Of a stretch of 33,306 nucleotides of DNA, positions 18,988 through 24,294 are shown one piece after another; the stretch's first letter is position 1, and every line of letters begins with the position of its first letter. The DNA is from a virus (Duplodnaviria; Caudoviricetes), in the IMG/VR virus record IMGVR_UViG_3300030376_000340, positions 1 to 33,306 of that record; one strand, written 5' to 3'. Below the pieces are notes generated by a model, which was given only the letters and a program-made list of their open reading frames with translations, was not told the origin of the DNA and searched no databases. The position numbers were made by a program, and so were the translations under genes.

Positions 18988-19293
18988 ATGCGAAGCATAA
19001 GACCAGGACATTACCAAGCAACTATATCTTATGGTCAAGATCAAGTGATCGTAGTTAATATTGTTAAGATAAAGTCTAACTTTCAACACAGTATTACTAA
19101 ATGGAGATTGACTGTTGATGATAGTGTACTAGGTCCACAACATAAAACTGATTGGGATACCAAACAGATGGCTATGGAAACAGGAAGAAAAGAAGTAGAG
19201 AACCTTATGTTCAAAGCTTTAGAACTGAGGATTATCAAGGGTTTTCAGTTACCCAAAAATTATTATGGAAAGGAAAAACTACATGAAGTGTAA
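18988..19293 (+). CDS. Hypothetical protein
   Basis: 101 aa, AGGAGGT RBS. Confidence 0.75.
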   Translation: MRSIRPGHYQATISYGQDQVIVVNIVKIKSNFQHSITKWRLTVDDSVLGPQHKTDWDTKQMAMETGRKEVENLMFKALELRIIKGFQLPKNYYGKEKLHEV

Positions 19294-19492
19294 TGCAGAA
19301 ACATTTAAAGATCTAATGTGTAAGGTAAATAGAATATCACCAGGTGCAGAGGTAAAGTTTGCATCAAAAGTATATCATGGAACTAGAGAAGAAGGTGAGT
19401 TCAAAGAACATGAGTTCAAAAAAATAAATAGTATTCTAATTGAGTTTGAAACTTACTCAGGTAGAGATGAGATAATTATAACAGTTGAATAG
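19265..19492 (+). CDS. Hypothetical protein
   Basis: 75-aa ORF; start may be the second Met, which follows AAGGA. Confidence 0.6.
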   Translation: MERKNYMKCNAETFKDLMCKVNRISPGAEVKFASKVYHGTREEGEFKEHEFKKINSILIEFETYSGRDEIIITVE

Positions 19493-19493
19493 T

Positions 19494-19664
19494 ATGAAAA
19501 ACTATAGAGTTGTATTATCTTGGAATGTACAAAAAACTTATTTTGTGAATGCAAAAGATAGTGAAGAAGCAAATGACAAAGCAATACATGGTGGAGGACT
19601 TGATGAAAGTTATGATTCATATGAGTTTGATGACTATATTGAAACAGTAGAGGAGGATGAATAA
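19494..19664 (+). CDS. 56-aa acidic protein with 'V.A.DSEEA..KA' motif (DpnD/PcfM-like pattern)
   Basis: Hand-translated MKNYRVVLSWNVQKTYFVNAKDSEEANDKAI...EEDE; TAATG overlap with the next gene. Confidence 0.65.
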   Translation: MKNYRVVLSWNVQKTYFVNAKDSEEANDKAIHGGGLDESYDSYEFDDYIETVEEDE

Positions 19665-20458
19665 TGCTACCAACAGAACTAATGTTTGAGGTTCGTGAAG
19701 AACCTGTATACAACCAACATGGCTCAAGGCTAGATGGCTACAAGCAGTTGGTTAAAGATGATAACAACGAACTGATTGCAGTTCATAAGAATACATATCG
19801 AGTTATATCACATGACAAAGCACATATAGAAGCACTTGATTTTCTACATGAAAACTTTGATACAAATGGTATGACTGAGCAACATAAGTGGTCTAATCGT
19901 GGTGCTGTTATGGCTACCAGATTTACTTTACCAGAGTATCAAATACCATTCAAAGATACATCCATTGGTCTAGAAGCTGTAGTGTGGAACAGCTATAATG
20001 GTATGCGTTCATTCAGATTTGATCTAGGTTTCTACCTATTTCTATGTCTTAATGGACTAAAGAATTCAGTATGGGATATCAGTTTGAATACAGCACACAA
20101 AGGTAGTAATGAAATTAAACTAAAATTACCTGGTTTGTATTCCGCTATGGATGGACTACATACTGTACATAACTGCATGGAAAACTGGATTGCAGAAGAT
20201 GTAAACTATGGTGAGTTCAGTTATGAAGTAGATAAGCTATGCTTACAACCTACAAGGAATGATAAAAGCCATGTAAATCAACAACATAAAAGGTACATAC
20301 AAGATCAATATGATCAGAACTATGCTAAAGAATTTGGTGAAAACAAGTTTAGTGCATACCAAGCTATCACACATTGGAGTACACACTACCCAAGTGATTC
20401 AGTTAATACTAGATATGATCGTGAAAGAAAGGTTGCAAACTGTCAGTGGTTTCACTAA
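19664..20458 (+). CDS. DUF932-family phage protein
   Basis: 'Y.VISH', 'NSYNG', 'CLNG', 'H' and 'AYQAITHWSTH' motifs; GAGGAGG RBS. Confidence 0.75.
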   Translation: MLPTELMFEVREEPVYNQHGSRLDGYKQLVKDDNNELIAVHKNTYRVISHDKAHIEALDFLHENFDTNGMTEQHKWSNRGAVMATRFTLPEYQIPFKDTSIGLEAVVWNSYNGMRSFRFDLGFYLFLCLNGLKNSVWDISLNTAHKGSNEIKLKLPGLYSAMDGLHTVHNCMENWIAEDVNYGEFSYEVDKLCLQPTRNDKSHVNQQHKRYIQDQYDQNYAKEFGENKFSAYQAITHWSTHYPSDSVNTRYDRERKVANCQWFH

Positions 20459-21738: not shown

Positions 21739-22263
21739 ATGGATGAAAGTAAAAATACTAAGAGTAAAGATATTAATCTTAAAGACAAAACTTTGGATAT
21801 ATGGAATCAGGCTAAAGAAACTGATCCAAGATTCACTAAGAAGGTATCCTTTGGAGCTAGGAGTTTTACTTCTATTGATGCTCACTATCAGATCAGACGA
21901 GCTACAGAGATCTTCGGACCAGTTGGTGCTGGTTGGGGATATAGTGTCAAGTACGATACTCTAACACATGACAACAAAGCATTTCAATTTGCTGATGTAG
22001 TTATATGGATAAGTAAACCAGAGATGGCATACGGACCAGTAAGAGGTTGTAACTTATTAGTAGATGGTAAAGGTAGAGTAGATGATGATGCACCAAAGAA
22101 AGCATTAACAGATGCACTAACAAAAGCACTATCACATTTAGGATTCAATGCTGATGTATTCATGGGTATGTTTGATTCAAACAAATATGTGAAACAGCTT
22201 GAAGAAAAATACAAGGGTAATGTAGATAAATCAAAAGTACAGGAGGTAACAACTAATGATTAA
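21739..22263 (+). CDS. Rad52/Sak-like single-strand annealing protein
   Basis: 'IDA.YQI.RATEIFGP.G.GW' and 'KKALTDALTKA...LGF.ADV'; located between exonuclease and SSB. Confidence 0.75.
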   Translation: MDESKNTKSKDINLKDKTLDIWNQAKETDPRFTKKVSFGARSFTSIDAHYQIRRATEIFGPVGAGWGYSVKYDTLTHDNKAFQFADVVIWISKPEMAYGPVRGCNLLVDGKGRVDDDAPKKALTDALTKALSHLGFNADVFMGMFDSNKYVKQLEEKYKGNVDKSKVQEVTTND

Positions 22264-22666
22264 TAAAGTAATACTTGTAGGCAGAACTGGTACAGATCCA
22301 GAAATTAAAACTATCAAGTCAGGTGAGATGGCTATTATGTCTATCGCTACAACTGAGAAAGTAACAGATAAAGAAACTCAACAAAAGAAAGATAAAACTA
22401 CTTGGCATAAAGTAGTAACATTTGATCCTAATCTTTCTAAGACTATCAAAGATTATGTAACTAAAGGTACTCTATTATATCTAGAAGGTCAGATAGATGT
22501 ATCACAATACACTGATAGTAGTGGTAATAAGAAATATAATACATCAATTCTAATACCAAGATTCTCTGGTGTTATGAAGATGTTAGGTGGTAAGAATGAT
22601 AAGTCTGTAGAATCAGTCAATCATGATGCCTTACCAGATGATGATATTCCTGACATACCATTTTAG
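22256..22666 (+). CDS. ssb: Single-stranded DNA-binding protein
   Basis: 'INKVILVGR.G.DPE', 'TTWH.V', acidic tail DDIPDIPF. Confidence 0.95.
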   Translation: MINKVILVGRTGTDPEIKTIKSGEMAIMSIATTEKVTDKETQQKKDKTTWHKVVTFDPNLSKTIKDYVTKGTLLYLEGQIDVSQYTDSSGNKKYNTSILIPRFSGVMKMLGGKNDKSVESVNHDALPDDDIPDIPF

Positions 22667-23100
22667 TTTCCATATGGAACTGTGTAGGAAAGACATAAGG
22701 TAGTAAGCGTAAAGCTAAAGCTGGTGGCTACACGCCTACACAGTAAAGTTTCGTGATACTGAATAGCTATCAGTATCGGCTGACTGAATAACGTCTATAC
22801 AGAGGCGTAAGGTACACTAGAGATGAAGTATGGGCAAATGCCTGAGATAATCAAAGGTGGTTGTAAGTAGGTAAATGATGAATGTATATCTGTAGCTGAA
22901 AGCATGAGGGTAATAACACTAATCCCTCGCCCTTGGCGAATTTAAGAACGATTAATACAGGCGTTATATCCTAGTTAAAGCGTGTGTTGGTCAGCTTCTG
23001 AAAGATTACTAGAGGCATCGAGTTGGAGCAAATATATGGTTGGTGAGAAAGGACGAAGCATAAGGTCATCCTGGAAAATCCATTAAATCATTCCAGGTAC
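22667..23100 (+). ncRNA. Candidate large structured non-coding RNA (~430 nt); strand inferred
   Basis: Largest ORF-free gap, GC-richer than its surroundings, many short and long-range helices with G-U pairs on the + strand. Confidence 0.65.
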
Positions 23101-23105
23101 ATGAA

Positions 23106-23140
23106 TTGACATGTTATAAACAAAGCCATATATATACTAC
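23106..23140 (+). promoter_or_regulatory. Putative sigma70 promoter giving a leaderless transcript
   Basis: TTGACA, N17, TATATA, N6, ATG(23141); no SD. Confidence 0.55.
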
Positions 23141-23362
23141 ATGGTATTAAAATCTCAGCTTGATGAACTAATAGAAACCTTAACTGATTATACTAGGTAT
23201 CTATCTCAGTTCGGATATGATGATGAAACAATCTTTTGTGCATATGCTGTTACTGCTATGTATCTAACAGGAGAAAAGAACTCTAAGAACATTGGTAAGT
23301 CTATAATGAAAAAGGTTAAGAGTATTAATGTTGTTGAGAGTACTGGTCATACAGTTCACTAG
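23141..23362 (+). CDS. Hypothetical protein
   Basis: 73 aa; converges on and overlaps the end of the late unit. Confidence 0.65.
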   Translation: MVLKSQLDELIETLTDYTRYLSQFGYDDETIFCAYAVTAMYLTGEKNSKNIGKSIMKKVKSINVVESTGHTVH

Positions 23363-23612
23363 CATATTCTAATGCATCAAAGTCATAGTAATCCCAGAAC
23401 TTAAACTCTGGTTTATACTTACCCCATGTTAGTTCTGAATGATGTTCAAAACATAATGGTACTACAAGATAATTAGATCTTTTAAATTGTACTTGTGAAC
23501 CTCGTAAGTGGTGAACATTCATAGGAGTGTTTGATGTACATCCAGGTACACAACATCCATGTTCAATTATTTTATTAAAATATTTTTTATCTTTAGATGT
23601 ATATCTGCCCAT
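23325..23612 (-). CDS. HNH-like nuclease (Ref/DUF968-like)
   Basis: 'GCCVPGC...VHHLRG...VVPLCFEHH'. Confidence 0.7.
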   Translation of the reverse strand: MGRYTSKDKKYFNKIIEHGCCVPGCTSNTPMNVHHLRGSQVQFKRSNYLVVPLCFEHHSELTWGKYKPEFKFWDYYDFDALEYASELYDQYSQQH

Positions 23613-24294
23613 CCCAAGAACCATCCTTCCTTAATAACATTGGTATTAAGTATGGTACACCATTAATGATACAACCACAAGATAGTATTGGTTTAGCTAC
23701 ATTGATTTTCATGTATGCCATAGCTAATGATTGTTTGTTTACAAGACAACCTACTGACATACCCCAGTTTAAATGAAAGTCATTACCAACATACTCTATA
23801 TTTGACTGCGTGTGGTAATGCCCTTGACATACCGAAGCAGACATTAGTTGTACTGACTTAACAATATTCTTAGATACTTGATGTGCAAAGTATATCCTAC
23901 CGAGTGTGTTAGTTTCCCAATGAAACTCTTTCCACTGCCATCGAGATGACACATCTAGTATTTCATTATAATCTTTTAAGAAGAACTTAGACATTCCTTT
24001 AGCCATGGCTCTGCGTAATACCATAGATCCATGATTAGATTCTAATAAGATCATATCAGGGTACATCTTCTCTAACTTCTTAATCCAAAACTTGCCAACT
24101 TCTAGTTCATCAGCTGCGGAAGGTAGGTCTGGATTAATAACATGGCTTACATTGATGCTATGCCAATCCATCTCATCACCGATATTGATTACCTTATCCC
24201 AGTTATATCTGTTTTTTAATTTATTTAGAAAGCGAAAGCTGTCAGGATGGTGATATGGTATATGAAGGTCAGAAATGACCAAAATCTTATCCAT
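23593..24294 (-). CDS. Calcineurin-like metallophosphoesterase
   Basis: DLH, GDEMD, SNH, H and GHYH motifs; likely start MDKILVISDLH at 24294. Confidence 0.85.
   Translation of the reverse strand: MDKILVISDLHIPYHHPDSFRFLNKLKNRYNWDKVINIGDEMDWHSINVSHVINPDLPSAADELEVGKFWIKKLEKMYPDMILLESNHGSMVLRRAMAKGMSKFFLKDYNEILDVSSRWQWKEFHWETNTLGRIYFAHQVSKNIVKSVQLMSASVCQGHYHTQSNIEYVGNDFHLNWGMSVGCLVNKQSLAMAYMKINVAKPILSCGCIINGVPYLIPMLLRKDGSWDGQIYI

Follow-up and report, generated by a model that had tools for sequence, protein, structure and literature searches.

What occupies the 474-nt spacer (22667-23140) between ssb and a 73-aa open reading frame (ORF) in the 33.3-kb virus record analysed here, whose whole length is the window, and in what form would it act? 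A preliminary description made from the sequence had proposed a structured + strand phage RNA of about 430 nt; the structured + strand RNA stands, and the single molecule gives way to four modules, named A, B, C and D (Table 1), so that the locus is a real, modular + strand RNA region.

Genome setting and general properties of the spacer

The record, rated as about 99% complete, carries the gene set of a small tailed phage (terminase, portal-type adaptor, major head protein, tail proteins, holin, and lysozyme), and its rightward block holds a RecE-like exonuclease, a second exonuclease-family protein, and ssb. A SAR11-type host is likely, given the 60% identity of the major head protein to its counterpart in Pelagibacter phage EXVC031P; the same protein is more distantly akin to those of other pelagiphages and of marine Vibrio podoviruses. 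The stop codon of ssb immediately adjoins module A. Of 50 related loci examined, 42 have a homologue of the 73-aa ORF (45-99% identity) behind the gap, and the others end too early. The 73-aa ORF belongs to no family in Pfam or PHROG, a nucleotide search with the gap and 18 kb of the window returned no match among 50,697 phage records, a set from which near-identical ones may be missing, and a tRNA/tmRNA search of the window found none.

The general features reported for the gap are borne out. Specifically, the longest ORF in 22667-23140 is of at most 36 aa on either strand, the G+C fraction is 0.40-0.41 in 22550-22999 versus 0.30-0.34 in the flanks, and a direct count again gives 27 G or C among the 60 positions of 22681-22740. 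Compared with shuffled controls, the folding energy of the whole region is better on the + strand only: as + strand RNA it reaches -127 kcal/mol (z = -3.39, 0/100 shuffles as good), versus z = -1.17 and 11/100 shuffles as good for the - strand. The argument from G-U pairs also holds, since many conserved pairs of module B are G-U on the + strand and mismatches on the opposite strand, and the RNA is therefore read from the + strand. Scans of 22000-23700 for promoters (four promoter-like sites versus 8.8 expected in shuffles) and for terminators (a single terminator-like site, inside a convergent gene) were unusable.

Table 1. Coordinates of the spacer modules, their helices and the neighbouring genes in the window
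Feature	Position	Strand	Basis or remark
ssb (136 aa)	22256..22666	+	ORF; PHROG phrog_44 single-strand DNA binding protein, E 1e-30
AGUUU spacers	22664-22670; 22745-22751	+	
Module A	22667..22745	+	MFE -24.2 kcal/mol, z -2.59
A, small palindromic hairpin TTCC-ATAT-GGAA	22668-22679	+	
A, long irregular two-part hairpin with internal loop, lower stem	22679-88/22735-44	+	MFE
Module B, manA-like RNA domain (197 nt)	22746..22942	+	Rfam manA match, covariation
B, outer stem P0	22750-54 with 22936-40	+	seen by eye, then covariation
B, P1	22755-62/22770-77	+	covariation
B, core closing stem	GGC 22778-80 / GCC 22929-31	+	
B, helix	22783-85/22811-13	+	
B, helix	22791-96/22803-08	+	covariation
B, helix	22815-18/22856-59	+	
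B, helix	22832-35/22840-43	+	
B, helix	22870-72/22895-97	+	
B, helix	22906-10/22924-28	+	covariation
Module C, rare cassette, two predicted hairpins (22950-22992, 22994-23016)	22943..23031	+	MFE -22.2 kcal/mol
Module D	23032..23140	+	MFE -23.1 kcal/mol, z -2.07
D, closing stem	23033-41 with 23124-32	+	pairs in 16/16 copies having it, almost invariant
D, three hairpins	23052-54/23065-67; 23070-76/23091-97; 23099-103/23110-14	+	
73-aa ORF, downstream neighbour	23141..23362	+	ORF track; last gene of the rightward block before convergent leftward genes

A mosaic of four modules

The module boundaries were drawn from pairwise comparison of the window's spacer with related loci, namely 51 loci encoding SSB relatives of 63-95% identity. 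Where a related locus holds both ssb and the ORF (42 cases), the two genes lie 125 to 738 nt apart, and the window's spacer splits into four independently occurring segments, of which those matching A, B, and D are combined differently from locus to locus: A and D are present and B is absent in L020, B is present and A is absent in L003, L012, L022, and L023, just the last 36 nt of D are retained in L012, and most relatives carry other inserts where the window has C. A search with the covariance model R1 of 13 loci whose gap holds no B found no B elsewhere in any of them. Insertions and replacements cluster in the gap across the related loci, and the intergenic gaps of these abundant marine phages are built from exchangeable RNA modules.

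The preliminary description had envisaged one ornate RNA of about 430 nt and of a new family, in which a long-range helix, 22778-87/22987-96, closes a domain of about 220 nt. This helix can indeed be drawn with ten pairs, three of them G-U, and the whole region folds with the z-score of -3.39 given above. Its 3' arm, however, lies in module C, which is present in only two other contigs, one of them without B, and pairs locally in the predicted fold of C itself, whereas its 5' arm is the invariant manA core in all 41 B copies, 39 of which lack C, whatever follows. Moreover, by a rough estimate, a ten-pair helix with G-U pairs between stretches of about 200-300 nt is expected a few times by chance. 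The helix is rejected because its arms belong to modules that are usually apart and because the 5' arm is invariant regardless of its flank; the single RNA is likewise rejected, its four autonomous modules being found separately and in other combinations in relatives, and we regard it as highly improbable.

The fold of module B

The structure of B was assessed on 41 distinct full-length copies free of N, taken from 56 pattern-matched viral contigs and the SSB loci (one copy with N was dropped), and comprises 45 pairs in 11 helices, that is, the RNAalifold prediction plus the outer stem P0 recognised by eye. In the sequence-only alignment, 97.8% of the cells pair versus 34-51% when the partners are slid by 1-3 columns, 13 of the 45 pairs are compensatory (134 cells), and the pairing, the count of compensatory pairs, and the covariation score are each unmatched in 500 shuffles. 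When the alignment is refitted to model R1, and thus leans to the structure by construction, 98.9% of the cells pair and 15 pairs are compensatory; four of the five pairs of P0 are compensatory in this structure-biased alignment.

Covariation among homologues thus supports the fold of B, including several helices that had been proposed by eye: compensatory changes occur in five of the eight pairs of P1, in two of six in ACGTCT/AGGCGT, in two of four in GGC-AAAT-GCC, and in one of five, in 13 sequences, in GAGGG/CCCTC. Conversely, TCGCC/GGCGA, which is 68.3% paired with no compensatory change and does no better than shuffles, is discarded because its bases serve the final hairpin, the core closing stem, and P0. 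Altogether, among the nine helices of the preliminary description, covariation supports four in B and one in D, two are predicted only, and two, the long-range helix included, are rejected.

The folding energy of B on its own is no better than that of shuffles (z -1.06), so that the support is comparative, not thermodynamic; on this comparative footing, B is a real structured RNA, which P0 closes into a self-contained domain. About 100 positions are invariant in the 41 copies, many of them in loops and junctions. By eye, the invariant segments CAGA (22800-03) and UCUG (22889-92), neither of which varies, are complementary, and a kissing contact between them is conceivable; in the canonical manA consensus, a CUGU-containing loop is instead complementary to ACAGU in the loop of the final hairpin, which hints at a re-wired loop-loop contact in B. 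A second copy of B ahead of the DUF932-like gene, as in relatives, was considered and rejected: the window has coding sequence (19284-19493) at that place, and R1 gives a single match in the window, at 230 bits.

Module B as a distant relative of manA RNA

The preliminary description could not assign the RNA to a known family; its core can be assigned, below the curated cut-off. The window matches no Rfam entry at the gathering threshold; in a scan of 22500-23300 with all 4227 Rfam models at E <= 10, manA (RF01745) matches 22757-22936 over model positions 1-192 with 34.5 bits, below its gathering cut-off of 55.2 bits, and with E 4.1e-7 (4.1e-9 per genome), and the other matches are five chance-level ones to snoRNA and miRNA models, none at E <= 1. 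Eight of nine scanned relatives carrying B also match manA, at 33-39.5 bits. For comparison, canonical manA loci were retrieved with an Rfam-consensus pattern, which an estimated 980 or so viral stretches match; all 20 loci tested score 152-197 bits. In the reverse direction, R1, whose E-values are rough, matches 11 of 40 canonical manA loci over positions 1-206 (E 3e-5 to 7e-3), and 25 of the 40 give no match at E <= 1. Significant full-length similarity is hence found in both directions.

B keeps the order of elements of manA, which runs from a 5' hairpin and the core closing stem through UGACUGAAUAA, a hairpin, UAAGGU, a multi-hairpin middle, and CUGUAG to the final hairpin GGGUA...UAAUCCC; all four sequence blocks of this core align and are invariant, or nearly so, in the 41 copies. 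Like manA, it is also marine, phage-borne, and often located just upstream of genes. In contrast, the middle third of B aligns poorly, six pairs of one manA stem being flagged as non-standard: the six-pair stem around the three middle hairpins and the long seven-pair hairpin of manA are non-standard or deleted in the B alignment, and analogous shorter stems are found in B (22815-18/22856-59, and 22863-64/22902-03 with 22870-72/22895-97), with one pair compensatory. P0 of B is extra and encloses the 5' hairpin as well; in one alignment of a canonical manA RNA to R1, several outer positions, including one P0 pair, are flagged as non-standard. Moreover, the carriers of B are pelagiphage-like podoviruses of about 33 kb, not T4-like cyanophages, and the B family is small (56 viral contigs versus the estimate for the canonical pattern). 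Judged by these comparisons, B is a distant, sub-threshold manA relative, remote yet significant in both directions and outside manA by Rfam's own criterion, and it forms a new branch of the manA family.

In the passages of Weinberg et al. 2010 (PMC2864571) that deal with manA, this RNA is a probable cis-regulatory riboswitch candidate, located in the potential 5' UTR of genes and drawn from marine metagenomes, T4-like cyanophages, and two gamma-proteobacteria. The location agrees with 28 of 52 B copies; the window's own B lies 200 nt and two modules away from the next start codon. A cyanophage paper places wcaG, manA, and abiF RNAs within about 800 nt of one another. According to a preprint (10.64898/2026.07.01.735769), canonical manA RNAs self-assemble in vitro into RNA-only, pentamer-based oligomers and cages, with decamers and a 60-mer; the preprint concerns in vitro work only and is silent on function in infection. 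B is connected with these cages by distant membership of the same RNA family and, as far as the sequence goes, by its invariant complementary loops, which could in principle kiss. Titles and abstracts on pelagiphages and on manA or the riboswitch-candidate motif contained none that links manA RNA to pelagiphage-type phages. Of the 20 canonical manA copies scanned, three have a tRNA gene next to them at no more than about 50 nt, in two cases with no gap, and one locus has a glutamine riboswitch about 225 nt upstream of manA (the loci concerned are L113, L124, L127, and L129).

The manA RNA has been an orphan riboswitch candidate since 2010; Rfam's cut-off for this family misses a whole phage lineage of manA relatives.

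Genes and promoters around module B

The core pattern of B retrieves 56 viral contigs, of which four end too early and 52 can be assessed. In 28 of these 52, the core is followed by a Shine-Dalgarno-like sequence and an ATG, the latter 26-30 nt behind the core's CGCC, and in 22, further non-coding modules come next, as in the window. The ORFs opened after B are at least seven and unrelated (a DUF932-like protein, a 97-100-aa protein, and several acidic proteins of 56-73 aa); family searches assign them no known function, and they have no common theme. The linker UAACAAAGGAG is common to three of these genes, and because of this B seems to travel with its own ribosome-binding site. By eye, the search of B for pairing against the ribosome-binding site gave only 4-bp matches and no alternative pairing that hides the site.

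In the L059 lineage, a near-consensus promoter, TTGACA-16-TATAGT (11/12 matches), ends 6 nt ahead of the first base of the R1 model, and B would therefore start at about the first nucleotide of the transcript; the site preceding B in the L064 lineage could be an intrinsic terminator just as well as a promoter. In several relatives the module sits directly behind stop codons, at a distance of 3-14 nt. Homologues of two B-preceded genes are found in the window (19494-19664 and 19664-20458) with no B in front, and B has therefore moved among intergenic sites. The exact core pattern has no match in 185,579 species' genomes and occurs in 41 marine metagenome contigs; in the pattern searches of viral contigs and species' genomes, only phage contigs yielded B.

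Modules A, C, and D and the spacer motif

Module A occurs in 23 viral contigs. The helix 22679-88/22735-44 of the preliminary description is present, appears in the minimum free energy (MFE) structure, and is conserved, with both arms identical in 16 of 17 complete distinct copies of A, a conservation of sequence that leaves it at the level of a prediction. The module is nearly invariant apart from three alternative apical inserts: at its tip (22710-22720 in the window), L232, L233, and L240 carry inserts of about 28 and about 44 nt, themselves hairpin-forming, in an otherwise nearly identical context. No Rfam match was found for A at E <= 10. Its place directly after the ssb stop codon and its two-part hairpin point to a possible role in processing the ssb message or in protecting its 3' end, and A is reminiscent of the RNase III sites between phage T7 genes.

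Module C folds with z -1.75 on the + strand and z +1.02 on the - strand. Only two further viral contigs share the 95 nt of 22941-23035, with 99% identity: L004, where no B lies within 5 kb, and one in which B and C are set apart by 163 nt of different sequence. The helix GCTTCT/AGAGGC is found in the MFE structure of C and, with only three near-identical copies known, stays at the level of a prediction. By eye, the segment that comes after B in L059 and comprises linker, ribosome-binding site, and start codon (UAAGAAAGGAUAAUAUGAC) has a seemingly mutated counterpart at the start of C (22943-22965, UAAGAACGAUUAAUACAGG), and C may include a remnant of a lost gene start.

In module D, the CCTGGAA/TTCCAGG helix, also proposed by eye, is supported by a compensatory U-A to A-U swap in three of 19 sequences, and the third hairpin has compensatory changes at three positions among 19 relatives. 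Between the 3' arm of the closing stem and the ATG of the 73-aa ORF lie 8 nt, and this ORF has no Shine-Dalgarno sequence in the window. By eye, TTGACA (23106-11), a 17-nt spacer, and TATATA (23129-34) are followed after 6 nt by this ATG, so that a promoter for a leaderless message of the 73-aa ORF is conceivable; the promoter scan of 22000-23700 does not have this pair among its listed sites. L012 and L013, otherwise without D, still retain its last 36 nt.

Across the 28 distinct gap sequences, no 5-mer occurs in more distinct contexts than AGUUU (45); it stands mostly at module starts as (A/G)AGUUUC, and nearly all modules begin with it. The UUC of this spacer usually opens a closing stem that ends in ...GAA, as in P0 of B, in small hairpins, and in a 56-nt element (see below). 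Genome-wide in the window, AAGTTTC (10 versus 7.0 expected) and AGTTTC (34 versus 23.3) are not or weakly enriched; the motif thus characterises the gaps and not the genome at large, and could be a processing site or a recombination junction.

Module B in marine RNA libraries

Of the words sampled from 22500-23400, 7-15% occur in 23 marine RNA runs (14 studies), and all eight RNA runs examined (five studies) hold contigs on B. In four runs of one study, contigs with 0-1 differences lie at 22848-23015, 22895-23049, 22869-23040, and 22786-22940; together, these near-identical contigs span 22786-23049 and cross the window's B-C junction. RNA-library contigs of relatives match 22746-22942 and then diverge into their own flanks, with breaks exactly at 22746 and 22942/45, and one of them joins B straight to the start of the downstream DUF932-like gene. 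The coding parts of ssb and of the 73-aa ORF are uncovered in most runs, a lack of cover that carries no weight. These are assembled contigs, which attest to presence but say nothing about strand, ends, or level, and which may stem from carried-over DNA; within that limit, the search of marine metatranscriptomes finds the B family in RNA libraries, the exact B-C junction included, and leaves the strand aside.

Possible roles of the chain

We lean, with somewhat better than even confidence, towards the following reading: the window carries a four-module + strand chain in which the 197-nt core (22746-22942), the distant manA relative, is probably a portable cis-acting leader for whichever gene follows. 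The fixed spacing of 26-30 nt to start codons and the promoter-like site of L059 favour such a leader. The region would be transcribed together with the ssb block; in the copies placed 26-30 nt before a start codon, folded B would abut the ribosome-binding site, and its folding, ligand binding, or self-association could set the access to this site or stabilise the message. In the window, C and D would uncouple B from the start codon, D being the element that touches the start of the 73-aa ORF, and A would serve as a processing or 3'-end-protecting hairpin of the ssb message. The case for a leader rests on the relatives because the next start codon of the window lies 200 nt beyond B and behind two modules, and this distance counts against it, as do the further non-coding modules behind B in 22 of 52 copies and the downstream genes, which lack a common theme or known function, unlike those of a typical metabolite riboswitch. 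The z-score of -1.06 for B alone, the search that found no pairing hiding the ribosome-binding site, the upstream site of L064, promoter and terminator alike, and RNA evidence from contigs without strand or ends weigh in the same direction. Moreover, the oligomers and cages of canonical manA in vitro and the tRNA-adjacent copies (3/20) fit a free-standing RNA better.

Such a free-standing RNA, the main alternative to the portable leader, is possible if rather doubtful: B would be cut from the operon transcript at the A/U-rich AAGUUU spacers and would self-assemble as canonical manA does in vitro, its neighbours being incidental. P0 closing B into a discrete domain, modules bounded by the recurrent AGUUU spacer (45 contexts), relatives' contigs that diverge exactly at 22746 and 22942/45, the decamers and 60-mer of the preprint (10.64898/2026.07.01.735769), the complementary invariant loops CAGA and UCUG, and the 200 nt that part the window's B from a start codon all agree with it. 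It finds hard to explain, however, the fixed spacing in 28 of 52 copies and the shared linker and ribosome-binding site before unrelated genes; a promoter or terminator of B's own is not seen in the window, nor are processed ends in data that consist of contigs only, the assembly results concern canonical manA, against whose model B reaches only 34.5 bits, and the complementary loops of B never vary. A quite unlikely account treats the modules as general elements of mRNA processing or stability (RNase III or RNase E sites, protective hairpins), like those of phage T7 early mRNA, that set message amounts of the ssb block with neither sensing nor assembly. The intercistronic position, 3-14 nt after stop codons in several relatives, the long two-part hairpin of A with its internal loop, and the exchangeability of the modules, as expected of generic elements, agree with this account; RNase E prefers A/U-rich single strands, and AGUUU would fit this preference. 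The roughly 100 invariant positions of B and the core that it shares with manA nevertheless far exceed the needs of a nuclease site or protective hairpin, and A is conserved in sequence, not only in shape. Hardly credible, lastly, is a decayed gene or an element acting as DNA (promoter, recombination hotspot), in place of functional RNA, for part of the region: the first 20 nt or so of C resemble, by eye, the L059 linker, ribosome-binding site, and start with key bases changed, TTGACA-17-TATATA stands just ahead of the 73-aa ORF, and the gap is a hotspot of insertion and replacement, yet no protein similarity exists between the window and the L059-type downstream protein, the compensatory changes in B and D are explained only by RNA pairing, and C folds better on the + than on the - strand.

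The B branch is small, has a clean closing stem, occurs in phage contigs only, and lies at a fixed distance from unrelated start codons and once directly at a promoter; this geometry makes the choice between a cis leader and a free RNA particle directly testable. A more speculative proposal, unlikely as it stands, is that pelagiphage-like podoviruses carry a toolkit of portable RNA cassettes, with an AAGUUU(C) opening and a UUC...GAA stem, that are swapped among early-region intergenic sites, and that the manA-like cassette, with its own linker and ribosome-binding site, is a plug-in translational control unit gating host-takeover genes via a ligand or self-assembly.

Comparable elements in other phages

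The comparison with GOLLD and ROOL made in the preliminary description is only loosely apt. These RNAs are phage-associated and ornate, of unknown function and of 500-800 nt, whereas the RNA unit of the window is shorter than 200 nt; both are presumably among the Rfam 15 families, and neither is matched in the scan of 22500-23300 with 4227 models at E <= 10, in which manA alone reaches E <= 1. Closer in arrangement are the promoter-early stem-loops of T4-type phages, reportedly described by Arbiol and colleagues in 2010 as mobile regulatory cassettes that flank shuffled genes; they are said to be promoter-plus-hairpin DNA repeats thought to drive recombination. The likeness lies in short conserved regulatory cassettes at gene boundaries of the early region, marking sites of modular exchange; the difference is that the modules of the window appear, by sequence comparison, to be larger folded RNA domains with covariation.

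An element of 56-60 nt (GUUUCCCCUG...GGGGAAU) recurs in L044 (2906-2972) and in the gaps of L003, L005, L008, L019, L026, and L051, either right after ssb or after B, and is 89-98% identical between phages whose SSB proteins share about 63% identity. A closing stem and two inner hairpins can be drawn by eye; its folding z is only -0.59, and it has no Rfam match at E <= 10. Module E and the element that precedes the ORF in distant relatives gave chance-level matches only against Rfam. In these distant relatives (L044, 2968-3053), the homologue of the ORF is preceded by an element with a 12-pair stem (z -2.10) and then by an AAGAG ribosome-binding site; as both lineages have an element before the ORF, this position would be structured in both, with unrelated sequences.
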